This document shows positions 3,692 through 64,000 of a DNA stretch of 64,000 nucleotides, piece by piece. Each line of letters starts with the position of its first letter. Within the stretch, counting starts at the first letter, position 1. The notes below the pieces were generated by a model that was not told the DNA's origin, made no database searches, and worked only from the letters and a program-made list of their open reading frames with translations. A program made the translations under genes and the position numbers. The stretch is from a virus. The stretch lies in the IMG/VR virus record IMGVR_UViG_3300009034_000013, positions 1 to 64,000 of that record. One strand, 5' to 3'.

Positions 3692-4004
3692 TAAATGGCT
3701 GAATTAAATGAGTTAAAATTTAAATTTGATACCTCTGAAATTGATAGAATAGTAAGGATAACTTGTCTCAATAAAGAATGTAAACATCATGTAGTAAATG
3801 AACAGTATGGAGTATGTAATTTGAAAGTTGTTAAAATAAATGAGAATGGAACTTATATGGGAGATGATAAGTGATAAATAAACTATTAGGAAGAATAAAA
3901 ATATTTTTAAATGAAGAAGAAGTAAAGGATTTCAGATCTGTTAATAAAAAATTAAATATATTTTATAGAAATATTAAATACAAAATATAGGATGCATAGT
4001 TCTC

Positions 4005-5330
4005 ATGTCCAAGAAAAAGAAATCTAAAGGTATAGTACTAACAGATAAACAGGAATTAGGTAGAAGGATATTGATGGAAGATAATAAGTATACTGATATT
4101 CTTTTTGATGGTGGTTCCAGATCTGGAAAAACACTTATTATTATTATTGTTATTATTATTCTTTGTCAGTTGTTTGTTGGTCTCCGAGCATTAGTGGCAA
4201 GAATGAAATTTGCACATGCAAGAGCATCTGTATGGGATCAAACTTTGATCCCTCTAATTCAAAAAATGTATCCACAAGCAGGAATAGATAAATCGAGATT
4301 TATTGTTAGAACTGGTAAATCTGAAATATGGTTAGGTGGATTGGATAGTAAAGAAAATACAGAGAGAGTGCTTGGTCAAGAATTTGGAATAATATTTTTG
4401 AATGAATCAGTTGAGATTCCTCAAAGTATTAGAGATTTGGTTAAAACAAGATTAGCTCAAAATGTAAATAAGTTAGAAAGGATTATAGATGATTATAATA
4501 ATTTAGGAAAATTAACTAAATTGATTAAAAATTTTCATAATTTTATAGTATATGATTGTAATCCAAGACAACCTACTCATTATTTATATAAGGAATTTTA
4601 TGTGGAGAATGATGAAAGTAGAAAGACATTAAAGTTTTATCCACAAGATAATATTGAACATTTACCGGAAGGTTATATTAAAAATATTTTAGAGAAATTA
4701 CCAGAAGATAAAAAGGCCAGATTTTTAAGAGGAGAATGGGCTTATTCTCCTGGAGCCGTTTATAGTAATGTTCATGAGAAAAATATAATAAATTGTGAAA
4801 AGAATATATATAAATTTTATGATGATATTGTTGTTGGTATTGACTGGGGACTACATATGTGTGCTGTTATTTGGGGAATTAAAATAACTTCTGATAAAAT
4901 AAAAGCATATTGTTTTCATGAAATAATAGTATTGGGAGGAGTTACTTCTGATTTGATAAATGAATTAGATAAAATTGTTGGATTAAAAGAAAAAGGAATT
5001 TTTTTATATTGTGATCATGAACCGGATAGAATATTGGAATGTCAATCAGCTGGATATCAGGCAAAGAAAGCATATAAAGAAGTTGGCCCAGGAGATAGTA
5101 GTGTTAATGAATATGAATTGTATTATGATTATAATTGCAAATATACTTTTCAATCTATGGTTAATTTAGTCAATCAGGAAAGTACTCTTGGGGATGGGTT
5201 TATTTATGGGAAACATGTTAAGGAGAATGACCACGAAGCAGATGGAAGCCGTTATGCATTACATGGTTGGAAGATAGATAACAGAGTGAAAGGACAAGGA
5301 CATTATATTTTGGAAAAGGCAGTAATATAA
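4005..5330 (+). CDS. terL: terminase large subunit
   Basis: Walker A GGSRSGKT, IIFLNE, DCNP, RFLRGEW; RNase H-like VGIDWG and DHEADGSRY. Confidence 0.93.
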   Translation: MSKKKKSKGIVLTDKQELGRRILMEDNKYTDILFDGGSRSGKTLIIIIVIIILCQLFVGLRALVARMKFAHARASVWDQTLIPLIQKMYPQAGIDKSRFIVRTGKSEIWLGGLDSKENTERVLGQEFGIIFLNESVEIPQSIRDLVKTRLAQNVNKLERIIDDYNNLGKLTKLIKNFHNFIVYDCNPRQPTHYLYKEFYVENDESRKTLKFYPQDNIEHLPEGYIKNILEKLPEDKKARFLRGEWAYSPGAVYSNVHEKNIINCEKNIYKFYDDIVVGIDWGLHMCAVIWGIKITSDKIKAYCFHEIIVLGGVTSDLINELDKIVGLKEKGIFLYCDHEPDRILECQSAGYQAKKAYKEVGPGDSSVNEYELYYDYNCKYTFQSMVNLVNQESTLGDGFIYGKHVKENDHEADGSRYALHGWKIDNRVKGQGHYILEKAVI

Positions 5331-6686
5331 ATGAATTTATTAAATATACTTTTTAGAAAAAGAAAAAAGAAAATAAAAATACATGCATCTATTCCTGAAG
5401 GAGGATCAGTTGATATTACAAGTACTTCTATTACAGGAAGAATCTCAACAGAAGCAACACAAAAGAAAAATCAATACAAAACTTATGCAGCTACGATTAT
5501 TGGAATATATGATATGTTTAATAATGCTAAAGATTTTGGAGGCGAGTTCATAAAAAGTATATTAAGAACAAGAGTTGCTTTTATTGCTGGTGGAGGAGTT
5601 ACTGTAATAGCAGAAAAAGAAAGAACAGCTAAATGGATTACTGATTTTTTAACATATAATAAATTATTAGAAGGAAGTAATTTATTTAGATATGTTCTTA
5701 CTTCTGAAATGGAAGGAAAAACATTATTAATAATTAAGCCTAACAAAGATAAAACAAAAATAGATGTAAGAATGTTTATATATAAGAAAAATCCTTATGT
5801 TGTTGATATGGATAAGAAAGATGATCAAGTAATTAAATCTGTAACTTATAAATCAGAAAGAGAAACAAAAGTAGAGGAAGTTGCTAATATAGACAATCTT
5901 GTCTATATTAAAATAGGGGGTAGTCCAGATAAAGTGAATGAAACGACTCCAGTTGTGGGTAATTGTTTAACTGATGTTGAAAATGCAAGTAGGATAAAAT
6001 ATGATTTGAGATATAATAATCATTTATTTGGTAAACTAACACCTTCTTTCAAAACGAATGATATGGTTGAAGCAAAAGCCTTGAATAATTTATTATTAAC
6101 TACTGATTGGAAAACAGGAAGGACTTATGTTGGAACAGCCGAATTAAAATTAGTTGGTCCTCCTCCAGAAGCAACAGAAGCTTTAATTATGGAATTGAAA
6201 ACAGCTTGTAGGATTATTAGTATGAATACTGGAATACCTATTCATTGGTTGTCTTGGCCAGATCTTATGTCGAATAGATCAACAGCGGAAAATTTAATGG
6301 AGGTAGTTAATGCTGCTACAATAATGGAAAGAGAAATATGGGAAGAAGGATTAACAGAATTAATACAAAAAGCTATGATAATAGCCACTGAACTTGGAAT
6401 GCCAGAGGCTGTAAATGATCCTGATGGTTTTGAAATACGTTTACCTTTGATAAGTGAAGCTAAAATGAAAGAAATAAATGAAACTTGGATACCATTAGCT
6501 GATGGAGATTATGTAACAAAGGATAGTGTGAGAAATAAAATACCTGGAATAAATCCTTTATTTGAAAAGAAAATGATTGAAGATGAAAAAGAAGAAAGAT
6601 TAAATAAAATAAAAAATAAATTTAATAATGAATTAGTTGATGAAAATCATGAAGAAGAAAATGAAAAGGAGAAAATTGAAGAATGA
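5331..6686 (+). CDS. portal protein
   Basis: 451 aa immediately after TerL; TGIPIHWL...SNRSTAE motif; acidic C-terminus. Confidence 0.8.
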   Translation: MNLLNILFRKRKKKIKIHASIPEGGSVDITSTSITGRISTEATQKKNQYKTYAATIIGIYDMFNNAKDFGGEFIKSILRTRVAFIAGGGVTVIAEKERTAKWITDFLTYNKLLEGSNLFRYVLTSEMEGKTLLIIKPNKDKTKIDVRMFIYKKNPYVVDMDKKDDQVIKSVTYKSERETKVEEVANIDNLVYIKIGGSPDKVNETTPVVGNCLTDVENASRIKYDLRYNNHLFGKLTPSFKTNDMVEAKALNNLLLTTDWKTGRTYVGTAELKLVGPPPEATEALIMELKTACRIISMNTGIPIHWLSWPDLMSNRSTAENLMEVVNAATIMEREIWEEGLTELIQKAMIIATELGMPEAVNDPDGFEIRLPLISEAKMKEINETWIPLADGDYVTKDSVRNKIPGINPLFEKKMIEDEKEERLNKIKNKFNNELVDENHEEENEKEKIEE

Positions 6687-7255
6687 GTAATATTCCAGAA
6701 AGAACTCAAAAATATATTAAGGGACTTACTGATTTTATAGATTATATTGATAGACAAATTCCTGTTAAAGATTTAACTATACTTGAAATAGGAGCTTGGA
6801 CTGGAATAGGATCTATTACATTTGCTAAAAGATTTAAAGAAGTTCATTGTGTTGATATTTGGAAGAAAGACAAAAGATGTTTGATTACAGTTAAATATGA
6901 TATTAATAAAGTTGAAAAAATATTTGATGAAAGAAAAAAGAAATATAAAAATATTTTTAAATATAAAGGGGATTGGAAACATTTTGCTAAAATATTTAAA
7001 TCAGATGATAAATGTTTTGATGTAATTTATGTTGATATGAATAAAATATTTGAGGAAAATCTAAATTGTTTACTTGCTTTCTATCCATTAACAAGAGAAT
7101 TTATATCAGGACATGATTATGAAGATAGATTTTCTGGGGTAAAAAAAGCAGTTAATAAAATATTTGGACGACCACAACTTGTATTTCCAGACACAAGTTG
7201 GATAGTTAAAATAAATAAATTTATAGGAGGAAAAGAATATGGGAATGGAAATTAA
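6683..7255 (+). CDS. class I SAM methyltransferase (Methyltransf_24-like)
   Basis: LEIGAWTG, FDVIYVD and SGHDY motifs. Confidence 0.85.
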   Translation: MSNIPERTQKYIKGLTDFIDYIDRQIPVKDLTILEIGAWTGIGSITFAKRFKEVHCVDIWKKDKRCLITVKYDINKVEKIFDERKKKYKNIFKYKGDWKHFAKIFKSDDKCFDVIYVDMNKIFEENLNCLLAFYPLTREFISGHDYEDRFSGVKKAVNKIFGRPQLVFPDTSWIVKINKFIGGKEYGNGN

Positions 7256-7529
7256 TGTTTATGGTTATATTTCACCAGAAAATCCTACATATCAAAAACA
7301 TGCTAAAGTTTTAAAAGCATGTATTAATGCTAGTATTGAGAAATTACCAGAGGAAACAGCAAGATATTTTAATAGCTATAAAAATATTCCTGATGTAGAA
7401 GATCTTGATAAAAAATTAGAAATTAAAATTCCAATACATGATAAATTTACTGACGATAGTGAAGAGTATGAAATATTTATACATGAATTACCGAAAGGAA
7501 TTTATAAAATAAAAATCATATATGCTTAA
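7239..7529 (+). CDS. hypothetical protein
   Basis: Coupled ORF with GGAGG RBS. Confidence 0.6.
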   Translation: MGMEINVYGYISPENPTYQKHAKVLKACINASIEKLPEETARYFNSYKNIPDVEDLDKKLEIKIPIHDKFTDDSEEYEIFIHELPKGIYKIKIIYA

Positions 7530-7543
7530 AAAGGAGGAAAAGA

Positions 7544-7822
7544 ATGGATAACAAAGAATTAAAGGACAAAGGCTTTGAATATGAAGTAAGAGAAAGAATA
7601 ATTAGTAATGAGGTTATTAAAGATGGCCCGAGAGCTGGAAAAAAGAAAGGCACAATGCCTGGTAAATTAATTGGTACTTACTTTCATAAAGGAATGTTAG
7701 CACCAAGAATGTTAATTAAGGTTAAAGGTAGAAATAGAAGAATCATTTGTGTTGACATTAATGGTAATGAAAGAATAGCAATAGTGGAGAAATGTGGAGA
7801 GTGGAGAAATGTAGAGAAATAA
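7544..7822 (+). CDS. hypothetical protein
   Basis: AAGGAGG RBS. Confidence 0.6.
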   Translation: MDNKELKDKGFEYEVRERIISNEVIKDGPRAGKKKGTMPGKLIGTYFHKGMLAPRMLIKVKGRNRRIICVDINGNERIAIVEKCGEWRNVEK

Positions 7823-7963
7823 TTATGGGATGTTGTGAAATATGTGGATCTGATAAAGAATTAATACAAATACAATCAAAAGATTTTGGAGAAAATTTTA
7901 AAGCAGCTAAAATACTTTGTAAAAAATGTATGATAGAAAATAATATAAAGGAGAAAAATAATT

Positions 7964-8251
7964 ATGGCGGGAAAAGTAATATCAACTGTTGATATGAAAG
8001 AAACAGTATTGACAGGAAAAGACAGAAATCTGGAAATTAGAAAAACAGATTTAGATTTTCCATTAACAGATACGGATCAGAGTAAGATTTGTTCTACTCA
8101 TAATATAGTCCCTAACAAACGATTACTTGAAAAAAAGGACATAAAAAGATTTATTAGGAGGCTAAAGGGAAATAAGAAAGAAGAAGTGGAAGAAAAGAAA
8201 AGAGGCAGACCAAAGAAAGTTGAAAAGGAAAATAAAATAAAGAAGGAGTAA
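7964..8251 (+). CDS. basic protein with AT-hook-like KRGRPKK
   Basis: AAGGAG RBS; KKRGRPKK motif. Confidence 0.55.
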   Translation: MAGKVISTVDMKETVLTGKDRNLEIRKTDLDFPLTDTDQSKICSTHNIVPNKRLLEKKDIKRFIRRLKGNKKEEVEEKKRGRPKKVEKENKIKKE

Positions 8252-27563: not shown

Positions 27564-30314
27564 ATGTTTGAGGCTGGGGCAGTTGTAGGAAGAGCGATAC
27601 TTGATTCTAAACAATGGGTGGCTGGAAGTAAAACAATTCAAGCAACTAACAAAAGTATGGCTACTAATCTTCAGAATCTACAAAAGGGATTTATGAGTAT
27701 TTCTTTAGCTATTGGTGTTGCGTTTACAGGTGCTATTGTCAAAACTGATGAATTTAATAAATCCTTTGCTAATGTATCAACTCTTATAGATGATGTAAAT
27801 GTAGACGTAGATAGTATGAGAAAAGAATTACTTGGACTTGATGAAAGGCTAGGATCAGCTAAAGATCTTAGTGAAGGATTATATCAAGCGTTATCTGCAA
27901 GTGTTGAACCAACTAAAGCAGTGGGCTTTGTGGCTGAATCTGCTCAGTTTGCTAGGGCTGCATTAGTTGATACTAATACAGCTGTTGATGTTATAACGAC
28001 TGGATTAAATGCCTACGGTTTAGAGGCAGAAAAAGCTGGAGAAATAAGCGATAAACTTTTTACTGTAATTAAAAAAGGAAAAATTACAGGGGATGAGTTG
28101 TCAGCTACAATAGGAAATTCTATTCCTATTGCTGCTAATATGGGAATAGAGTTTGATGAGTTAGGTGCATCTATTGCCATAATGACAAGACAAGGTATAA
28201 ATGCGGCGGTAGCTACAACTCAGTTTAATGCCATAGTAACAGCGTTCTTGAAACCTTCAAAAGAAATGATTAATAGATTAGAAGAAATGGGTTTTGAGAG
28301 TGGAGAAATGGCAATTCAGCAGTTAGGTCTTAAAGATACTATTGATAAAGTTATTGAATCAACAGATGGATCAAAAGAGGAGATGGCAAAATTATTTACA
28401 AATGTTAGAGCATTAAAAGGAGCGATGGCATTAACAGGAGAAGGAGCATCTGACTTTGATGAAGTTTTAAAGGATATAGAAAATAGCGCTGGAGCTACTA
28501 CAGAAGCTTTTGAAAAACAGGAATTAACTTTTGAGACTGTTAAGAATAGAATAGAAAAAGTCGCTATTAGTATAGGTGATGTATTATTGCCTATAATTTA
28601 TGATTTAACAAATTTTGTCTCTGGCTTGTTAGATGGTTGGAATAATCTTGATGATTCTACTAAAACAATTATTATAACAATAGTAGGATTAACAGCAACA
28701 TTAGCTCCGTTAGCTTTAGGGATTACGAAAGTAATAAAAACAATTCAATTATTATCAGCAGGTATTGCAGCAAATCCTTTAGGATTAATATTAACATCTG
28801 TAGCTACTTTGACTGTGGGTATTGCTACTTTAAATGAGATAATAGTATCAAATAATAACAGATGGAAAGAACAATATACGGTAATAGGAGATAATGTTAG
28901 TAGAACAAAAGAGTTAGTTGATGAATATAAAGATCTTATAATAAAAGCTGAAGATAATGAATTTGCTCAAAATGCGGTAAAAGAAACAACAGGAGAATTG
29001 GCAAAAATATTACCTGGAGTTACTAAAAAAATGGAGGAATATGGAGATGCCATTCCTGCCGAAGAAATGGAGAAATTAGCAAAAGAACAAGCAAAGTTAG
29101 ATTTATTAAATTTGCAGAAACAGTTGGTTCCACTTGAAGAAGAATATAAAAAAATAGAAAAAACATTAAGAGAATCAGCTGAAGCTCAAAAGCTGATTGG
29201 AAATACATTTGAGTTGACAAGAGAACAATATGAAGCATCAACAAAAATAATAGAATTAAGTGAAGAACAATTTTTAAAGAAAAAAGAGAAAAGACTTGGT
29301 GAAGAAATAGGATTAATAAAAAAGCAGGCTAATGCAATAAATAATATATTATTAACATTTACTGAAAAAGAAAATGAAATAAAAGAAAAACAGGAAAAGA
29401 AAAGAAAAAAAGAGAATGAAGAAGCGAAAGATAGAAGAATAGAATTTGAGCAAGAATGGACTGATAAATTATTTTTACAATCAGCTGACAGACTTCAAAT
29501 ACTTGAATTTGAAAGAAAAGAAACAATAGCAAAAGCACGAGAAATTGGGGCTTCTATTTCTGCTATAAATGAATTTTACAATAAAGAACGTTTACAGATT
29601 ATTAAAGAAATAAGAGAAAAAACAAAAAATGATTTAGAAGAAAGAATAGAAATGTTTATAAACTATTTTAAAAAAATTGGAAAAGTTGAAGAAGAAAGCG
29701 CAGAGAAATTTGTTGCTACTGTTACCGGAGTAAATCAAATTGTATCAGACATGATGAATGTAACTGCTGATGAAATACAAGAAAAATGGATTATAACTTT
29801 TGCTGGAATGGAATATAGTGTGGAAGAATTTTCTAAATCTGCTATCAAATTGATGATGAATTTTACTAATGCTATGATTGAAGGAGTCATCAAAGGAGAG
29901 GATGCCTGGGAAGTATTTAAAAAGGCTGCTCAAAATGCTATAGCTACTGTTTTAAATGCTTTTGCTGAAGAATTTGTGATAAGATCAGTAGCTTCTGCTC
30001 TTATACCAGGAGGATTACCTGCGGCTGCAAAATGGGCGTCTTTAGCTGTAGCAGCTGGAGCTGCCGCTACTTTGGTGAAAAATCTTGAAGCCGGAGGAAT
30101 GGTTACTCCAGGATTAGCAGTTGTAGGAGAAGCAGGGCCAGAACTCATGAATATAGGCAGAACATCCACAGTAATTCCAGCAAGTGAAACCAGAAATATG
30201 TTAGGCGGAAAGGTAATAATGAATAATACTTTCATAGTTAAAAATGATGCAGATGCAGAAATGGTAACAAGAAAATTAGGAAGAAGATTTCAAAATGTAC
30301 AAAGGACAATATAA
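27564..30314 (+). CDS. tape measure protein (TP901 family)
   Basis: LSEGLYQALSAS, TGLNAYG, DKLFTVIKKGKIT; C-terminal VVGEAGPEL. Confidence 0.93.
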   Translation: MFEAGAVVGRAILDSKQWVAGSKTIQATNKSMATNLQNLQKGFMSISLAIGVAFTGAIVKTDEFNKSFANVSTLIDDVNVDVDSMRKELLGLDERLGSAKDLSEGLYQALSASVEPTKAVGFVAESAQFARAALVDTNTAVDVITTGLNAYGLEAEKAGEISDKLFTVIKKGKITGDELSATIGNSIPIAANMGIEFDELGASIAIMTRQGINAAVATTQFNAIVTAFLKPSKEMINRLEEMGFESGEMAIQQLGLKDTIDKVIESTDGSKEEMAKLFTNVRALKGAMALTGEGASDFDEVLKDIENSAGATTEAFEKQELTFETVKNRIEKVAISIGDVLLPIIYDLTNFVSGLLDGWNNLDDSTKTIIITIVGLTATLAPLALGITKVIKTIQLLSAGIAANPLGLILTSVATLTVGIATLNEIIVSNNNRWKEQYTVIGDNVSRTKELVDEYKDLIIKAEDNEFAQNAVKETTGELAKILPGVTKKMEEYGDAIPAEEMEKLAKEQAKLDLLNLQKQLVPLEEEYKKIEKTLRESAEAQKLIGNTFELTREQYEASTKIIELSEEQFLKKKEKRLGEEIGLIKKQANAINNILLTFTEKENEIKEKQEKKRKKENEEAKDRRIEFEQEWTDKLFLQSADRLQILEFERKETIAKAREIGASISAINEFYNKERLQIIKEIREKTKNDLEERIEMFINYFKKIGKVEEESAEKFVATVTGVNQIVSDMMNVTADEIQEKWIITFAGMEYSVEEFSKSAIKLMMNFTNAMIEGVIKGEDAWEVFKKAAQNAIATVLNAFAEEFVIRSVASALIPGGLPAAAKWASLAVAAGAAATLVKNLEAGGMVTPGLAVVGEAGPELMNIGRTSTVIPASETRNMLGGKVIMNNTFIVKNDADAEMVTRKLGRRFQNVQRTI

Positions 30315-57206: not shown

Positions 57207-58823
57207 ATGAATAAAATAGTTAAATATGAGAATAAAGAATTGAAAATAAAATTTAATTCTGAAGATAAAACAGAATTTTATAATATTCTTAATAATGTAA
57301 AAACATTATATGGCAGACAATTTCATTCTAATTCAAGAACATGGATAGCTCCTCCTACAAAAGAAAATATAGAATCACTTGCAAAATTTGGTTTTGATAT
57401 GGATGAATCTGTATTTATACTTTTTGAAAAGAAAAAAGAAAAAGATTTTTCTAAAATAAAATTGAAAAAAAAATTATCAAAAGAATTTTATCCTTTTCAA
57501 ATAGATGGCATAAAGTTTTTGGAAAGTAGAAAAGGTAATGGATTGATAGCTGATGCTATGGGTTTGGGAAAAACAATACAGGTATTAGGTTATTTTATAA
57601 TCCATCCAGAATTAAAACCCGTTTTAATAGTTTGTCCTGCTTCTGTAAAATTGAATTGGAAAAGAGAGATTGAAAAATGGACAGATTATAAAGATGAAGA
57701 TGTAAATATTTTATCAGGGAAAACTCCTTATAATACTACATTATCTTGTTTTTATATTATTAATTATGATATTTTAGACAGTTGGAAAGAAGTTTTAATT
57801 GAGAAAAAGTTTGCTATAATACTGTCTGATGAATGTCAATATATTTCTAATGGTCGATCTTTGAGGACAGAAGCATTTAAAAAAATAGCAAGGAAAGTGG
57901 ATAAAAGAATATTTCTGTCAGGTACACCAATAAGAAATAGTCCAAGAGAATTCTTTACAGTTCTGAATCTTTTAAATAAAAAATGTTTTCCTAATGAGTA
58001 TAAATATCTATATAGATTTTGCAATCCTAAATATAATGGTTTTGGCTGGCAGTTTAAAGGGGTAACAAATTGGAAAGAATTACATAATATTATTCAACCT
58101 CTTATGATTAGAAGAGAGAAAAAAGAAGTACTAAAGGATTTACCAGAAAAACGAAAAATAGTTGTACCACTTGAATGTTCAAAATTAGAATATGAAAAAT
58201 ATTTGGATGCTATTGAGAATATAAAGGAATGGGCAGGTGAGGATGAAAAGAAAAGTATAGTTGAAATAAAAAATAGAATGGAATTTATTTCTGGTCTTGC
58301 TTATGGAGCAAAAAGGAATTCAGTTATAAGTTGGATTAAAGATTATATTTCTACTGGAGAAAAATTAGTTGTATTTGGATATCACATTAAAGTATTAGAT
58401 GATATTGAAGCCGCTTTTTCAAAAGTGAAGACTGTTAGAATAGATGGTAGTGTAAAATCTGATGATAGACAAGGATTAGTTGATCAATTTCAAAATGATT
58501 CAGAAACAAAATTATTCATAGGACAGATAAAAGCAGCTGGAATTGGTATAACTTTGACAGCTGCTTCTGCTACTTGTTTTTTGGAATTTTCATGGACACC
58601 AGCAGATCATGAGCAAGCTGAGGATAGAGTTCATAGAATTGGGCAAAAGGCAGATTCGGTATCTGCTTATTATTTGATTGGGGAAGGGACTCTGGAAAAA
58701 GATATTGTAAAATTATTGCAAAGTAAACATGATACAATTAGTAAAGTGATAGATGGAAAGGAGAATGAAAATTTTTTTAAAAAGGATATTTTAATTGAAA
58801 TATTTAATGGTTTGAAATTATAA
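57207..58823 (+). CDS. SNF2-family (SMARCAL1/HARP-like) helicase
   Basis: ADAMGLGKT, DECQ, LSGTPIRN, GITLT, QAEDRVHRIGQ. Confidence 0.95.
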   Translation: MNKIVKYENKELKIKFNSEDKTEFYNILNNVKTLYGRQFHSNSRTWIAPPTKENIESLAKFGFDMDESVFILFEKKKEKDFSKIKLKKKLSKEFYPFQIDGIKFLESRKGNGLIADAMGLGKTIQVLGYFIIHPELKPVLIVCPASVKLNWKREIEKWTDYKDEDVNILSGKTPYNTTLSCFYIINYDILDSWKEVLIEKKFAIILSDECQYISNGRSLRTEAFKKIARKVDKRIFLSGTPIRNSPREFFTVLNLLNKKCFPNEYKYLYRFCNPKYNGFGWQFKGVTNWKELHNIIQPLMIRREKKEVLKDLPEKRKIVVPLECSKLEYEKYLDAIENIKEWAGEDEKKSIVEIKNRMEFISGLAYGAKRNSVISWIKDYISTGEKLVVFGYHIKVLDDIEAAFSKVKTVRIDGSVKSDDRQGLVDQFQNDSETKLFIGQIKAAGIGITLTAASATCFLEFSWTPADHEQAEDRVHRIGQKADSVSAYYLIGEGTLEKDIVKLLQSKHDTISKVIDGKENENFFKKDILIEIFNGLKL

Positions 58824-58838
58824 TGTAAATAAGAATCT

Positions 58839-58946
58839 GATGAGTAGAGTAAACCAAAGATAAAGAATGAGTTATATAGTGAAAGTAAACCAATAAAAGA
58901 GAGCGAGCCAGGCCGAGTGAGTAAACCAGCGCATGAGAGCGTATTT
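58839..58946 (+). ncRNA. TIGR-like dual-repeat guide array 1 (3 units, 36-nt period)
   Basis: GAGTAAACCA-type repeats at 58847, 58883, 58919 alternate with GAGCGAGCCA-type repeats at 58865, 58901, 58937; unique 8-nt spacers. Confidence 0.85.
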
Positions 58947-58996
58947 TTGTAAATGATCATTATATAATGATTAAATAATTTTATAGGGGATATCCG

Positions 58997-59686
58997 ATGG
59001 ATACTACAAAAAAATTAAAAGTTGGGGAATTGATCCTTGACTGGAATTTATGGCCACGTTATAAGGTGGAATTTTTAGATTCTACGAATATAACAAGAAT
59101 GAAACAAGCTATAAAAGCTGGGTTGAAACTTCCGTCTATTATAGTTAATAAAGCTGATTATAGAATAATAGATGGTTTTCACAGAGTAAAAGTTTATAGA
59201 GATTTATTTGGTGAAGAGCATGATATCACTGTTAAATTGAGAGAATTTAAAAATGATGCAGAAATGTTTATGGAATCTGCCAGACTAAATTCTGTTCATG
59301 GATTACCTTTAAGCCCACAAGATAAAGCTCATGTGATTTTAAGAGCAAGACGATTTAAATATCCTTTTCCAGTTATTGCACAAATAATAGGAATGGATGA
59401 AGATACTTTAAAAAAGTTTTATAAATCAAGAATAGCAAAAACTAAAAAAGGAGAAACTTTAGTTTTGGCGAATGGTGCTTCTGATTTAAGTGATTTGGAT
59501 AGACCATTAACAAATAATGAAGAAATACATGCAAGATCGGCTAATGGATGTAAAGCTTCTGTTAATATAGCTTTATTGTTATATGCTTTAAAAGCTGATA
59601 ATGTTAAACTAACAGAAAAAACAGTGTCAAATCTTATACAACTGAAAGAAGAAATAATAAGGATTTTAAAAAAGGCAGGTGTATAA
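58997..59686 (+). CDS. ParB/Srx-like protein with C-terminal HTH
   Basis: LWPR, LPSIIV...IIDGFHR, LNSVHGLPLS; stop codon overlaps the next ATG. Confidence 0.85.
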   Translation: MDTTKKLKVGELILDWNLWPRYKVEFLDSTNITRMKQAIKAGLKLPSIIVNKADYRIIDGFHRVKVYRDLFGEEHDITVKLREFKNDAEMFMESARLNSVHGLPLSPQDKAHVILRARRFKYPFPVIAQIIGMDEDTLKKFYKSRIAKTKKGETLVLANGASDLSDLDRPLTNNEEIHARSANGCKASVNIALLLYALKADNVKLTEKTVSNLIQLKEEIIRILKKAGV

Positions 59687-60480
59687 TGTTAAAAGATAAA
59701 AAAGTTGAGAATTCACTGAAAATATTGATAAGACAATATTATGATTATAGTAATGAAAGAATAGCTATGGATGGAAGATTAGGAATTAAGAAAGATGGGG
59801 AATTAAAGAAGAAAACTCCTGATAGAGATGAAATAATGTTGGCTTATTTATACACAAGAAGAAAAGAAATAATAACTGTGGAGAAAGAAATTGAAAAAGA
59901 AATCAGAAAAGAAGTGAACATACATACTCTGTGGAAAGGATTTTTCGAAGATGTTATAGGAGTGGGCCCAATAATGGCAGCGGTAATTATCACTGAATTT
60001 GATATTAAAAAAGCTAATACAGTTTCAAAATTATGGGCTTTTGCAGGGATAAATCCTGGTATAGTATTTGGGAAAACTGGAAAACTTGGTAATATAAAAA
60101 CCTCTAATATTTTGATAAGACAAGATAAAAAAACAAAAGGATTTTTATGTCCATATAATCAGTTTTTAAAGTGTAGATTGTTAGGTGTTTTGGCAGGAAG
60201 TTTTTTAAAAGCATCATCCCCATATAGTAAGTTTTACTATGATTATCGTTTTAGATTGGTGTCCTTAACAGATGAGGAAAAAGAAAAAAGAGGATTATGT
60301 AAGTCAAAAAATCCAACCGATAAAAATAAACCATATGCTAGTCATATAAATAACAGAGCTAAAAGATATATGATAAAGATGTTTTTGAAAGATTTATATG
60401 TTGCGTGGAGGACGTTAGAAGGATTACCAGTTAGAGATCCATATGCTGATGAATATTTGAATAGAAAACATGCTGGATAA
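59686..60480 (+). CDS. Nop-domain (IS110 C-terminal-like) RNA-binding protein, TasA-like
   Basis: Coiled coil, VIGVGPIMAAVII, SKLWAFAG, YNQFLK, HINNRAKRYMIKMFL; no RuvC/DEDD or HNH domain; flanked by the arrays. Confidence 0.82.
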   Translation: MLKDKKVENSLKILIRQYYDYSNERIAMDGRLGIKKDGELKKKTPDRDEIMLAYLYTRRKEIITVEKEIEKEIRKEVNIHTLWKGFFEDVIGVGPIMAAVIITEFDIKKANTVSKLWAFAGINPGIVFGKTGKLGNIKTSNILIRQDKKTKGFLCPYNQFLKCRLLGVLAGSFLKASSPYSKFYYDYRFRLVSLTDEEKEKRGLCKSKNPTDKNKPYASHINNRAKRYMIKMFLKDLYVAWRTLEGLPVRDPYADEYLNRKHAG

Positions 60481-60482
60481 TT

Positions 60483-60600
60483 GAGCGAGCTACAAATAAG
60501 GAGTAAACCATTGTTCTTGAGCGAGCCAGGAGATTTGAGTAAACCAAGAAAATAGAGCGAGTCAAGGGAAGAGAGAAAACCATCTCTATAGAACGTATTA
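60483..60600 (+). ncRNA. TIGR-like dual-repeat guide array 2 (3 units, 36-nt period)
   Basis: GAGCGAGCCA-type repeats at 60483, 60519, 60555, 60591; GAGTAAACCA-type repeats at 60501, 60537, 60573; 8-nt spacers. Confidence 0.9.
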
Positions 60601-60690
60601 AAAAGGCAGGATAAAAAAACCATGCCTAATTTGAAAGTTTTTTTCAAATTTTGTGTTTAAATTATTATAATATAAGTATAGGGGAATAAA

Positions 60691-62535
60691 ATGTATGAAA
60701 TAATGAAATTATTTAAATCAGTATTAGTAAAACAGAAAAATGTTACAGGATCTCCTTATATTAGAAAAGGAATATTATATACTCCTGATGTTGGAAATGA
60801 ATATAAGGATATTGATTCTATAATAAATATGGCAGAAAAGATATTTTTACTTTCTGCAAAACAAATAAATAGTTCTTTTCATAAATCATGGCAGAAAATC
60901 AGAGATGTAAATATAGAACAGCTTGTATTAGAGCAAATTATCCATTATATAACTACATATGGTTTTGAATCTCTAAATATTTATAATAGCGAATCTGTAT
61001 ATATTCCAAGAGAGAAATTAGAATTACCAGAAATAGATATAGATAAAATTGAGTTGATTGTTATAAAAGGAATTACTAAAGAAGAATTAAAGGAAAAATT
61101 AATGAAAATGATGTGTTCTGGAATTGCTCTTGATGAAAATACTATTAAAGATATTGTAAATATTATTACTGATAATGATATTGGATTTGATAATGAAGAT
61201 GTTAGAAATATAAAAAATAAAGAAATAAAATCAATTATAATGGATAAATTAAGTTTAGTACCAGATGATCCAGTTGAATATTTGAGATATATTATTTATA
61301 AAATGACAGGTGAAACTTTGTTGATTAAAAATAAAGAGTTAATAGAAAAGATAAAAGAAAATCAGAAAATATTTTCTCTGTTAAAAATTGATGAACATAG
61401 TCAAAGAAAATTAGCCAGTATATTTTATCGATTCAAACCTTTATTTTTAGCAATGAAAGGAACCCCAACAACAAATAAAATAATAAATAGAATAAGAAAA
61501 TTAGCAAAGAAATATCATAGACCGATGAAACAAGATTATCTAAATAATATAACAAATCAAAAGTATATAGATATACTTTTTTTCAAGAAAGAACTTAATA
61601 AGGTTAATATTTTCAGAAAAATAAGATTAGCAAATGCTATAAAATATAGAATGTTAAATAGTGGTTCAATTGTATACAGAATAAGAAATGGAAAAAGTTA
61701 TTCTACAGAAAATAAAAAGAGAGATAAAGATTATTATGATAATATATATGAAATAATAGAAAAGAGTATAAAGGATGATATAAAAGAGATCATAGGAAAT
61801 AAGAAAATATATATACCAGATTATATAAAGTATACTTTACCATCTTCTGAAAAACAATTTTCTGATAATGTTCCATTAGGTACAAATATAACTGTGAAAG
61901 AGAATATGGTTTTTGGGGTGTACTGGAAGAATGTTGATAAAAATAGAATTGATTTGGATTTGTCTTTATTATCTGTTGATAGTAAATTTGGATGGGATGC
62001 AAGATATAGAAATGAAGAAAGAAGTATATTGTTTTCTGGGGATATGACAGATGCTTGTGATGGAGCTTCTGAATTATATTACATAGAAAAAAATAAACCC
62101 GGTATTTATTTAGTGATGTTAAATTATTATAATTATAATAAATACGAAGAAAAAGATATTCCAGTTCCTTTTAGAATATTTATTGCAGATGAAAAAATAA
62201 ATTTGATTGAAAAGAATTATATGGTTAATCCTGAAAATATATTGATAAATATAAATACTGAAATAAAAAGAAAACAGAAATTATTAGGATTAGTAAAAAT
62301 AGATGAAAATAAAAGTATATTTTATTTTTGTGAAACAAACATAGGAATGTCAATAACATCAAGTGATAATGAATATATGAAACATTGCAGAAATTATTTA
62401 AAAGATTTTTATAGTAATTTAATGAATTTAAATGATATGATAGGAGATGTAACTAAGAAAAATGAATGTGATATTGATTTATCACCTAAAAATCTAACAA
62501 AAGATAAATTATTGGATATTATAATAAAGACATAA
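60691..62535 (+). CDS. helical N-terminal + TerD-like C-terminal protein
   Basis: FGVYW...IDLDLS...GWD...FSGDMTDA.DGASE TerD-like motif; long helical, basic N-terminal region. Confidence 0.65.
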   Translation: MYEIMKLFKSVLVKQKNVTGSPYIRKGILYTPDVGNEYKDIDSIINMAEKIFLLSAKQINSSFHKSWQKIRDVNIEQLVLEQIIHYITTYGFESLNIYNSESVYIPREKLELPEIDIDKIELIVIKGITKEELKEKLMKMMCSGIALDENTIKDIVNIITDNDIGFDNEDVRNIKNKEIKSIIMDKLSLVPDDPVEYLRYIIYKMTGETLLIKNKELIEKIKENQKIFSLLKIDEHSQRKLASIFYRFKPLFLAMKGTPTTNKIINRIRKLAKKYHRPMKQDYLNNITNQKYIDILFFKKELNKVNIFRKIRLANAIKYRMLNSGSIVYRIRNGKSYSTENKKRDKDYYDNIYEIIEKSIKDDIKEIIGNKKIYIPDYIKYTLPSSEKQFSDNVPLGTNITVKENMVFGVYWKNVDKNRIDLDLSLLSVDSKFGWDARYRNEERSILFSGDMTDACDGASELYYIEKNKPGIYLVMLNYYNYNKYEEKDIPVPFRIFIADEKINLIEKNYMVNPENILININTEIKRKQKLLGLVKIDENKSIFYFCETNIGMSITSSDNEYMKHCRNYLKDFYSNLMNLNDMIGDVTKKNECDIDLSPKNLTKDKLLDIIIKT

Positions 62536-62789
62536 AAAGTTCCTATGAATAGATTATGGAGGAGAGATCCTCTATTAAATTACTTTTTGTCTTTAAAATA
62601 AAAGCATAGAAAGTTCCTATAAATAAAAAACTTGAAATTTTTTACTTTCTGTTTTTAATGATAAGTCAAAGAAAGTTCCTATAAATAAAAACTATGGGTG
62701 TTTACTTACTTTCCGACTTTTTTAGAAATTATTGGGATCAAAGGAAGTTCCTAAAAATTAAGACTGCAAATCTATTACTTCCCGATTCT
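62525..62789 (+). ncRNA. array of four covarying stem-loop units with conserved AAGTTCCTA...TTACTT core
   Basis: Units at 62525-95, 62599-657, 62663-719, 62734-789; compensatory changes in the stems. Confidence 0.8.
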
Positions 62790-62814
62790 TATTTAATAGT
62801 ATAGGAGAAAGAAT

Positions 62815-62979
62815 ATGACAATTAAACAAGTGACATTAAGAAGAGTTTTTAATTTAGGTAATTATGAAACTCTTCATATAGAATTACAAGCGGATATAGA
62901 TAAAAATGAAGATGTAAAAGAAGTATTGGACGATTTACATCAAGAAGCTAAAAAATATAAAAGATATACGAAATCTTAA
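62815..62979 (+). CDS. small conserved phage protein
   Basis: AGGAG RBS; FNLGNYET motif; below the ORF-track size cutoff. Confidence 0.65.
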   Translation: MTIKQVTLRRVFNLGNYETLHIELQADIDKNEDVKEVLDDLHQEAKKYKRYTKS

Positions 62980-62987
62980 TAATATTT

Positions 62988-64000
62988 ATGAAAAGGAAGA
63001 AGATTGATTTGTTTCAGGAGAGACAAATTATAATTAATATGATTGTATCAACCAGATTTTTAAAAGAAATATCAAATATAGTTCAACCAAAATATTTTAA
63101 ATCACAATATGGAAAATTAATAAGTAGATGGATTTTAGAATATTGGAATGAATTTAAAATTGCTCCTGGAAAACAAATCCAAAATATTTTTTATCAAAAA
63201 GGAACATTTATTCAAGACGAAGATGATCGTGAAGATGTTTCAGATTTTTTATCTTTTCTATCTAAAGAATGGGAGGAGATAGAAAAAGAACAAAATATTG
63301 ATTTTTTAATTAAGAATGCTATTCATTATTTGAAAATAAGATCATTAGAAATATTAAAAGATAAATTGGAATCCTCTATTATTGAAGGAAATCCGCTTAA
63401 GGGGGAACAAAATATTATAGAATATAATAGAGTTGAAAAAATAAGTGGAATTGGAGTATCTTTGTTAAAAGATAGTTCTGCTATTATATCTGCCTTTCTT
63501 GAAGAGAATGAGATAATGTTTAAATTTCCTGGAGTGTTTGGGGAAGTATGTGGATTATTTCTTCGAGGAGATTTAGTGTCATTTTTAGCTGCCGCAAAAA
63601 AGGGAAAAACTTGGCTTCAACTTTATATAGGAGAAACAGCAGCGGCTTATGGTTATAAGACGATAATATTTACATTAGAGATGACACAAAATCAAATATT
63701 AAGAAGGGGATGGCAATTACTTGTTGGAATGCCAAGAATATCTGGATCAATTTTAATTCCACGATTTGAAAAAACAAATACTGATAAAAAGAAAAGATGG
63801 AAAGTGATAATGAGTAAGAAAAAGAAAAAGGGAGTAAATGTTTCAAATATAGAGAAGGAACAGAAAAAGTTAAAAACTATTTTTAGATCAGGTGATTTGA
63901 AAATAGTAACTCTACCAGCTTATTCAGCAACGATAGAAGATTTGGAAGCATATTTAGATAATTTTTATTATTTTGAGAATTATGTTCCTGATGTTATAAT
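62988..64000 (+). CDS. DnaB-like replicative helicase (3'-truncated)
   Basis: Frame reads MKRKKIDLFQERQII...RGDLVSFLAAAKKGKTW...IFTLEM and appears open to the window end. Confidence 0.85.
   Translation, partial: MKRKKIDLFQERQIIINMIVSTRFLKEISNIVQPKYFKSQYGKLISRWILEYWNEFKIAPGKQIQNIFYQKGTFIQDEDDREDVSDFLSFLSKEWEEIEKEQNIDFLIKNAIHYLKIRSLEILKDKLESSIIEGNPLKGEQNIIEYNRVEKISGIGVSLLKDSSAIISAFLEENEIMFKFPGVFGEVCGLFLRGDLVSFLAAAKKGKTWLQLYIGETAAAYGYKTIIFTLEMTQNQILRRGWQLLVGMPRISGSILIPRFEKTNTDKKKRWKVIMSKKKKKGVNVSNIEKEQKKLKTIFRSGDLKIVTLPAYSATIEDLEAYLDNFYYFENYVPDVI

Follow-up and report, generated by a model that had tools for sequence, protein, structure and literature searches.

What does a ParB-like protein do when it is encoded directly in front of an RNA-guided DNA-binding protein that carries no nuclease? 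The question is raised by a locus in the virus record IMGVR_UViG_3300009034_000013 (83,839 bp, 26% GC), of which we analysed positions 1–64,000, here called the window. The locus encodes TasParB, a ParB/Srx-like protein, followed by TasA, the Nop-domain protein of TIGR systems, and both genes stand between two TIGR arrays. A preliminary description of this DNA knew of no demonstrated function for the pairing. None has been demonstrated in the literature that we searched, but the pairing itself is published: Faure et al. (Science 2025, PMC12045711, fig. S14) named it tasParB–tasA and raised the question of the role of nuclease-free TasA systems and of TasParB, to which the later literature searched holds no answer. 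Our main addition is that TasParB and the ParB-like accessories of VIPR systems are one family. We favour, with a probability a little short of one half (about 0.45), a reading in which TasParB is an accessory that is recruited to or captured at DNA marked by the TasA ribonucleoprotein (RNP) and there reinforces or extends silencing. This reading commits neither to CTP nor to a choice between loading and capture.

The preliminary description had placed a ParB/Srx-like gene with the motif IIDGFHR between two arrays and had its stop codon overlap the start of a Nop-domain gene, and both statements proved correct (Table 1). The motif occupies residues I57-I58-D59-G60-F61-H62-R63 of TasParB. The tasParB stop codon TAA (59684–59686) and the tasA start codon ATG (59686–59688) have one base in common, at 59686, within the string ATAATG, and a Shine–Dalgarno-like sequence, AGGCAGGTG, lies at 59673–59681 ahead of the tasA start. 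The second open reading frame (ORF), 59686..60480, scored 135.6 bits on the NCBIfam model NF052498 (TIGR_Tas_endo, 'TIGR-Tas system RNA-guided endonuclease'; cut-off 100), with its residues 11–242 matching model positions 1–215. In a product of 264 aa, this match does not leave enough sequence for a nuclease domain of the HNH or RuvC type, and the passed cut-off together with the lack of nuclease room identifies the ORF as TasA. Pfam gave only a weak IS110 C-terminal match for it, and its matches in the collection of phages were confined to phiRSL1, Salicola CGphi29, Mvi-JY20 and Morrissey, at 26–34% identity. Other TasA proteins form dimers that bind 36-nt tigRNAs, bind matching double-stranded DNA (dsDNA) via both spacers and repress transcription without cutting. 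According to Faure et al. (PMC12045711), they process and load tigRNA partner-free. In reporter assays, TasA alone is an RNA-guided transcriptional repressor (bioRxiv 10.64898/2026.09.09.750476), and TasA structures have been solved (10.64898/2026.08.11.744272); neither preprint mentions ParB.

TasParB matched PHROG 1033 ('ParB-like partition protein') at E 8.6e-13. Pfam and PADLOC gave no match for it, INPHARED cultured phages held no homologue, and the phages collection had no DNA match either. A word-indexed search returned 57 homologues of ~225 aa with 36–61% identity, and a full hidden Markov model search returned 640 representatives of 50%-identity clusters at E ≤ 1e-30. The two signature peptides of the family picked out 66 loci in a scan of viral contigs. 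In this set the invariance of the motifs is partly a matter of construction; it holds too in the homologues that were collected independently. The window protein falls, in a quick, midpoint-rooted maximum-likelihood tree, into a clade with 100% support in the Shimodaira–Hasegawa-like approximate likelihood ratio test (SH-aLRT). A survey of co-occurrence bore out the linkage to tasA, which lies directly downstream in 14 of the 16 distinct proteins of this TasParB clade, and the operon structure stays while the neighbouring genes vary between loci. Of 13 related viral loci, nine show an overlap of 1–8 nt between tasParB and tasA and two an overlap of 23–29 nt (with the longest ORF taken); in one locus the genes abut, and in the last an array separates them. 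The distance matrices of ParB and TasA correlate across loci (Mantel r 0.54, a value not reached in any of 2000 permutations), as expected for a co-inherited pair. The tasParB–tasA arrangement is more than chance.

Outside the TasParB clade, about 45 unique loci lack TasA, and in nearly all of them a conserved gene of ~190 aa adjoins the ParB-like gene. This gene, which belongs to PHROG 4652 (unknown function), is present in 37 unique viral loci. A glycine-rich motif at the C-terminus of its product prompted the idea of a RAMP protein, and the AlphaFold2 model of the product (predicted local distance difference test, pLDDT, 92.7) matches type VII Cas7, Csm3, Cmr4 and Cas7-11 domains (Foldseek E 1.6e-6 and up, probability 1.00). 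In 28 of the 37 Cas7-like loci, the non-coding DNA contains arrays built from GGNNN pentamers, nearly always on the gene strand. A VIPR system is made up of Vipr, of vrRNAs of the GGY/NN type and of an accessory gene, 'vap' (bioRxiv 10.64898/2026.04.26.720920, 10.64898/2026.04.26.720927, 10.64898/2026.10.15.759431). The profile of the ~190-aa family matched the hypothetical protein encoded at 28474–29061 of Escherichia phage SUSP1 at E 6.6e-27, and that gene adjoins a 146-aa gene, in agreement with the preprint account of vipr and vap1. From this match to SUSP1 Vipr it follows that the DWNLWPR/DGFHR family, named after its motifs, is mainly the ParB-like accessory of VIPR systems. TasParB is the branch of this family that travels with TasA.

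Among the loci numbered L019–L066, examples of VIPR loci with a ParB-like accessory are L019:5144–6675, L026:5278–7985 and L051:5983–7860. The ParB-like proteins beside Vipr share 25–37% identity with TasParB (tblastn E 1e-11 to 1e-36), and the quick midpoint-rooted tree requires the association with TasA to have been gained or lost three times or more. The words ParB and TIGR are absent from the main texts of the three VIPR preprints; the accessory link between VIPR and TIGR-Tas was not found in the literature searched and is a new addition here. Neither a Vipr homologue nor a GGNNN array occurs in the genome from which the window comes; the window protein is homologous to the ParB-like vaps but is not itself a vap.

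Some members of the wider family deserve a description of their own. The locus L047:3843–8071 unites both systems around one ParB-like gene (5995–6678), with a TasA gene at 3843–4715, a Vipr-like gene at 5351–5992, a GGNNN array at 6718–7097 and a second TasA gene at 7106–8071. At L020:4006–5290, TasA and Vipr are both absent within 6 kb of a ParB-like gene of the TasParB sister group. Seven copies of a 37-nt repeat (GGTGTGCTCACCGCTGCATTCCCGAGGGAGCGCA-like) with a period of 64–66 nt come after this gene, and Rfam gave no match for them. They may represent a third array type that goes with the ParB-like family. The accessory of SUSP1, Vap1 (VIPR type II), strengthens restriction and is needed in vivo against a satellite (10.64898/2026.04.26.720920, 10.64898/2026.10.15.759431). 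SUSP1 Vap1 and the LESphi2 vap were considered as TasParB homologues and rejected, with hhalign probabilities of 0.2–0.4%.

The structure of TasParB was modelled with AlphaFold2 from 26 homologues (pLDDT 94.8). Its best structural match is KorB in the KorA co-complex (8qa9_B; Z 11.9 over 170 residues of N-domain and helix-turn-helix (HTH) domain, 18% identity), followed by pNOB8 ParB-N (Z 11.2), M. xanthus ParB–CTPγS (Z 11.2; root-mean-square deviation (rmsd) 1.9 Å, 24% identity), and Noc, B. subtilis ParB–CDP and C. crescentus ParB (Z 10.4–11.0). The KorB HTH domain (1r71) aligns as well, with Z 3.9. Sulfiredoxin scores Z ~8, the serine kinase SerK and SbnI Z 6–7, Osa Z 4.3, SspE Z 3.1 and BrxU Z 2.8, and no solved DndB structure is among the fold matches. 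Judged by this model, the TasParB fold belongs with the clamp-type proteins ParB, KorB and Noc and not with the DUF262/DndB-like branch that its motif recalls. A profile of 40 family members matched M. xanthus ParB at E 7.5e-5 and B. subtilis Spo0J at E 0.024, from box I to the HTH; the wider profile was needed, as a single-sequence search of the PDB with the N-domain gave noise only. The ParB/Srx identity given in the preliminary description is therefore upheld by PHROG 1033, by the profile match to M. xanthus ParB and by the fold, and an HTH domain is present. Its reference to CTP-dependent clamps among the ParB-fold proteins is borne out in part: the nearest folds are those of KorB, Noc and ParB, but the canonical CTPase signature is only half kept.

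The invariant residues of TasParB are D15, P20, R21, R56, D59, G60, H62, R63, N98 and G102. In box I, P20-R21 match the Pro-Arg pair, and W19 (W or Y in the family) replaces Q52 of M. xanthus ParB, a position assigned by motif spacing. In box II, DGFHR aligns with (A)GERR such that the Gly and the second Arg (R63) are kept, with F61 at the position of E93 and H62 at that of the first Arg. In box III, N98 corresponds to the Asn of ENLQR, while L97 replaces the Glu and H101 the Arg. The titles of PDB 7bnr and 7o0n, from a ParB CTPase study, point to mutations of Q52 and E93. The pocket scaffold and two phosphate-contact residues (Arg and Asn) are thus kept and invariant and the hydrolysis-associated residues are replaced, so that any nucleotide switch would be slow or non-hydrolytic. 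Faure et al. (fig. S14, PMC12045711) reported HHpred matches to ParB-like CTPases with the catalytic positions replaced by 'a distinct and conserved motif', and their legend compares the TasParB motif DGFHR with the DGQHR of DndB. On sequence grounds, TasParB fits a slow or non-hydrolysing nucleotide-binding switch and equally a different chemistry; it does not look like a textbook CTPase. Identity between clades is 40% in the N-domain, 24% in the HTH and 22% in the C-terminus, and inside the clades, too, the N-domain is conserved best. Such a pattern, with a clade-specific HTH and C-terminus, is expected if a shared mechanism resides in the pocket while the other domains adjust to the partner or the site.

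These observations can be joined into a mechanism for an accessory at RNP-marked DNA. The products of tasParB and tasA would be made together through translational coupling, and the tightness of this coupling argues for joint production. The TasA–tigRNA complex would locate a 16-bp target, where TasParB would be recruited or captured as KorA captures the KorB clamp. Its HTH may then touch the flanking DNA while the N-domain, probably nucleotide-bound, self-associates, and a larger or longer-lived nucleoprotein block could stop transcription, replication or packaging. The silenced target would be a rival mobile element or a host gene. An accessory role in silencing is favoured by the fact that the same ParB-like family has two unrelated partners, TasA and Vipr. 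Both are nuclease-free, phage-borne dsDNA binders guided by RNA, and for both repression of transcription has been demonstrated. Since the folds of TasA and Vipr are unrelated and their partner family is common to both, the role of TasParB probably lies downstream of target binding and is not bound to the guide protein. By analogy with clamp loading, guide-loaded TasA may act as a 'programmable parS' that loads TasParB, as the preliminary description proposed; the reading favoured here retains this proposal in its broad outline. A bolder version, which we consider rather unlikely, takes the DWNLWPR/DGFHR proteins as a portable effector module that phages plug into TIGR-TasA (Nop fold) and VIPR (Cas7-like filament). 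Such a module would recognise the RNP or DNA opened or distorted by it, close as a slowly or non-hydrolysing nucleotide-gated clamp, and spread or bridge for distant silencing, in effect an RNA-programmed parS.

Several points weigh against an accessory of this kind. The published AlphaFold3 model of TasParB and TasA, a 2:2 complex, shows no more than a slight contact, in the words of its legend 'TasParB weakly interacts with TasA' (Faure et al., fig. S14, PMC12045711). TasA represses unaided in reporter assays, so that TasParB is dispensable for basic silencing. Among more distant TasA loci (35–45% identity), a ParB-like neighbour, with its gene upstream, was present in only 3 of 17, which agrees with the published wording 'occasionally operonized' (PMC12045711). 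TasParB can also persist without a cis-encoded TasA: L012 and L013 have TasParB and a TIGR array but no TasA in a 35.5-kb record (85% complete), the TasParB-clade gene being followed directly by a 15-repeat array (GAGCGAGCCA / GAGTCAACCA; L012:1569–2575, equal to L013), and L015, which is complete, has a TasParB-clade member with neither TasA nor array. In the pocket, the box I Gln, the Glu and first Arg of GERR and the Glu and Arg of ENLQR are all replaced, which leaves CTP binding conjectural. As SUSP1 Vap1 and the LESphi2 vap show no detectable homology to TasParB, the Vap1 experiments provide an analogy and not evidence on TasParB.

Other roles have to be weighed against this reading. From the DndB-like DGxHR motif, Faure et al. 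(PMC12045711) suggested an enzyme-type function, and TasParB might accordingly be a ParB/Srx-type nucleoside triphosphatase, a nickase, or a sensor or writer of DNA modification that serves nuclease-free TasA as its catalytic effector. The invariant polar and acidic set D15, N17, R21, R56, D59, H62, R63, N98 and D109 speaks for an enzyme, and so do the resemblance of DGFHR to DndB DGQHR (Faure et al., fig. S14F), the weak GmrSD_N/DUF262 matches of 4 of 26 family members (best E 6.5e-4) and the presence of the ParB/Srx enzymes Srx, SerK and SbnI among the fold matches (Z 6–8.5). The fold, however, is far nearer to clamp-type ParB, KorB and Noc (Z 11–12, with the HTH aligned) than to SspE, BrxU or Osa. 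No PADLOC family matches the protein, no nuclease domain is attached to it, and in the published accounts TasA silences and does not cut, as does VIPR together with its DNA-binding accessory proteins. We regard an enzyme as an unlikely answer. We consider it about equally improbable that TasParB acts on its own locus, either by autoregulation of operon and arrays through its HTH or as a helper in the assembly or processing of the tigRNA RNP. An HTH that diverges between clades is what site-specific regulators show, the gene comes directly after a promoter-like site and an array with a conserved hairpin or palindrome just 5' of the ribosome-binding site (RBS), and L012 and L013 retain TasParB and the array without TasA. 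Yet the upstream element is a hairpin of varying sequence that offers no common operator, and other TasA proteins need no partner to process and load their tigRNAs (Faure et al., PMC12045711). Conservation in TasParB, moreover, is highest in the nucleotide-pocket domain, for which a simple repressor would have no use, and the same family serves Vipr, a structurally unrelated RNA-binding protein.

Tandem repeats next to parB genes are typical of plasmid centromeres (sopC, parS). With its fold nearest to partition ParBs, TasParB might thus be part of a partition or positioning system in which tigRNAs mark the phage genome as a programmable centromere. Partition was among the functions named in the preliminary description, and the genome speaks against it. 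None of the six spacer pairs of the two arrays has a perfect match in the 83.8-kb genome, in both geometries and with gaps of 0–2 bp; the best self-target, an A-rich 16-mer at ~79327 with one mismatch, was judged to be due to chance. No perfect palindrome of at least 14 bp occurs three or more times in the genome, as a repeated parS-like site would, although a single or imperfect site may still be present, and no ParA-like gene stands beside tasParB. The arrays are of the standard TIGR type, which is found too in TasA loci without ParB. We give this explanation very little credence, and an accessory that strengthens RNA-guided silencing remains the reading that we prefer.

The dual-repeat architecture of the arrays is the one described for TIGR systems by Faure et al. 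(Science 2025, PMC12045711). On both flanks, the unit consists of a 10-nt edge repeat GAGCGAGCCA, an 8-nt spacer, a 10-nt A-rich loop repeat GAGTAAACCA and another 8-nt spacer, with a period of 36 nt. Both arrays terminate in a truncated edge repeat, GAGCG upstream and GAACG downstream, followed by TATT. The edge and loop repeats are identical to those of more than 40 arrays in related TasA loci. The spacer pairs are GATGAGTA/AAGATAAA, TATAGTGA/ATAAAAGA and GGCCGAGT/GCGCATGA in the upstream array and CAAATAAG/TTGTTCTT, GGAGATTT/AGAAAATA and AGGGAAGA/TCTCTATA in the downstream array. With three units each, one of them degenerate, the window arrays are the smallest among ~45 related arrays, which have 4–36 repeats. 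At L017:6699–6876, the usual stop/start overlap gives way to a TIGR array of seven repeats that separates tasParB from tasA, and this locus has three arrays. The TasA-less loci L012 and L013 recall the 'solo vrRNA' phages described for VIPR.

The guide GGCCGAGT/GCGCATGA is strikingly GC-rich for a phage with 26% GC, and this points to a foreign target. At 8 + 8 nt, the spacer pairs lack the length that a database search requires, as the chance expectation for a 16-mer amounts to hundreds of matches in 596 Gb. A search of 309 loop-centred pairs from more than 40 related arrays against 0.85 Mb of related loci showed no enrichment: the loop-centred pairs gave 3 exact and 29 one-mismatch matches, and a control of 302 edge-centred pairs gave 1 and 20.

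Taken as a whole, the locus forms a self-contained tasParB–tasA TIGR system, in the order putative promoter, array, tasParB, tasA, array and probable terminator (Table 1). On its 5' side are phage replication genes, which encode a sigma-like factor, a primase and an SNF2 helicase (window ORFs).

Table 1. Features of the tasParB–tasA locus, with positions as in the window.
Feature	Position	Strand	Remarks
Sigma-70-like promoter candidate	58795..58824	+	TTGAAA-18-TATAAT; 11 of 12 consensus matches, top site in 58600–60800
Upstream TIGR dual-repeat array	58829..58945	+	3 units of 36 nt; repeats degenerate in the first unit
Perfect palindrome ATCATTATATAATGAT	58956..58971	+	16 bp, AT-only; between array 1 and the tasParB RBS
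tasParB	58997..59686	+	229 aa; ParB/Srx N-domain (DWNLWPR, DGFHR, N98), HTH domain, helical C-terminal domain
tasA	59686..60480	+	264 aa; nuclease-free Nop-domain TIGR-associated protein
Downstream TIGR dual-repeat array	60483..60599	+	3 units
Two neighbouring hairpins and T-rich tract	60604..60650	+	minimum free energy −12.3 kcal/mol, z −3.25

The promoter candidate overlaps the end of the SNF2 helicase gene, immediately 5' of array 1, and remains a candidate only, as the total of sigma-70-like sites in 58600–60800 is not above that of shuffles. At the other end, the fold energy of the two hairpins was equalled by 1 of 200 shuffles, and a simple terminator scan made no call at 60604–60650; the hairpins are likely the end of the transcription unit. 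The palindrome occurs once in the genome, and at its position the folding energy is no better than in shuffles (z −0.25). Most of the loci L001–L018 have a short hairpin in the stretch that separates the upstream array from the tasParB RBS, with a stem of 4–7 bp and a loop of ~4 nt; these leader hairpins are small and GC-rich, and their pairing is kept while the sequence varies. The palindrome was considered as an operator and rejected, since a hairpin of varying sequence occupies the same place in related loci, which makes an RNA element more likely. The leader hairpin or palindrome may be an RNA end or a processing signal. Rfam gave no match for the TasParB locus or anywhere in 58000–63500. 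Downstream of the TIGR locus and 3' of an unassigned 614-aa gene, four units at 62536–62790 share AAGTTCCTA(T/A)AAAT within pairing flanks.

If TasParB does turn a point-like RNA-guided binder into a spreading or long-lived silencer, this would account for the way in which phages silence rival elements that they do not cut, and it would offer a compact route to stronger or longer-range programmable repression. The family common to TIGR-TasA and VIPR gives two independent experimental systems in which the role of TasParB can be approached.

Compared with known systems, the locus agrees with the tasParB–tasA type of Faure et al. (2025) in gene order, in the DGFHR motif, in the dual-repeat arrays with 10-nt repeats on both sides and in a nuclease-free TasA. 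Unlike other such loci, it has very small arrays (3 + 3 units) and resides in an 83.8-kb phage with 26% GC. It is a small, intact representative of the published type. With the ParB-like vaps of VIPR, TasParB has in common DWNLWPR, DGFHR, N98 and the whole N-domain, and the two systems are alike as phage-borne, nuclease-free RNA-guided dsDNA binders with flanking guide arrays. They differ in the partner, which in VIPR is a Cas7-like RAMP filament with GGNNN pentamer guides and in TIGR a Nop-domain dimer with 36-nt tigRNAs, and the accessory tested in VIPR, the 146-aa SUSP1 Vap1, is non-homologous to TasParB. The D-G-x-H-R motif lies at the same position as in the DndB/DGQHR domain; the NCBIfam DGQHR/DndB models gave no TasParB match at E ≤ 1, and no dnd, ssp or nuclease genes are near the locus among the window ORFs. 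From the DUF262 (GmrSD_N) branch, TasParB is set apart by the low fold scores of SspE and BrxU.

Like the ParB–parS clamps (Spo0J 6sdk, M. xanthus 7bnk/7bnr, C. crescentus ParB and Noc), TasParB has a ParB/Srx N-domain followed by an HTH, and its N-domain superposes on theirs with an rmsd of 1.9–2.1 Å over ~92 residues at 16–24% identity. It differs from them by W/Y for Gln in box I, Phe-His for Glu-Arg in box II and Leu/His for Glu/Arg in box III, and neither a ParA gene beside it nor a parS candidate among recurrent perfect palindromes was found. The closest parallel is KorB of plasmid RK2 (PDB 8qa9, 8qa8), the best structural match across N-domain and HTH, although identity is only 18%, GERR and ENLQR are incomplete in TasParB, and the partner of TasParB would be an RNP where that of KorB is a protein repressor. 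In the KorB–KorA pair, a CTP-dependent ParB-family clamp is captured by a site-specific partner, with long-range repression as the outcome. It thus provides a working model of how a ParB-family protein and a second sequence-specific DNA binder silence genes.

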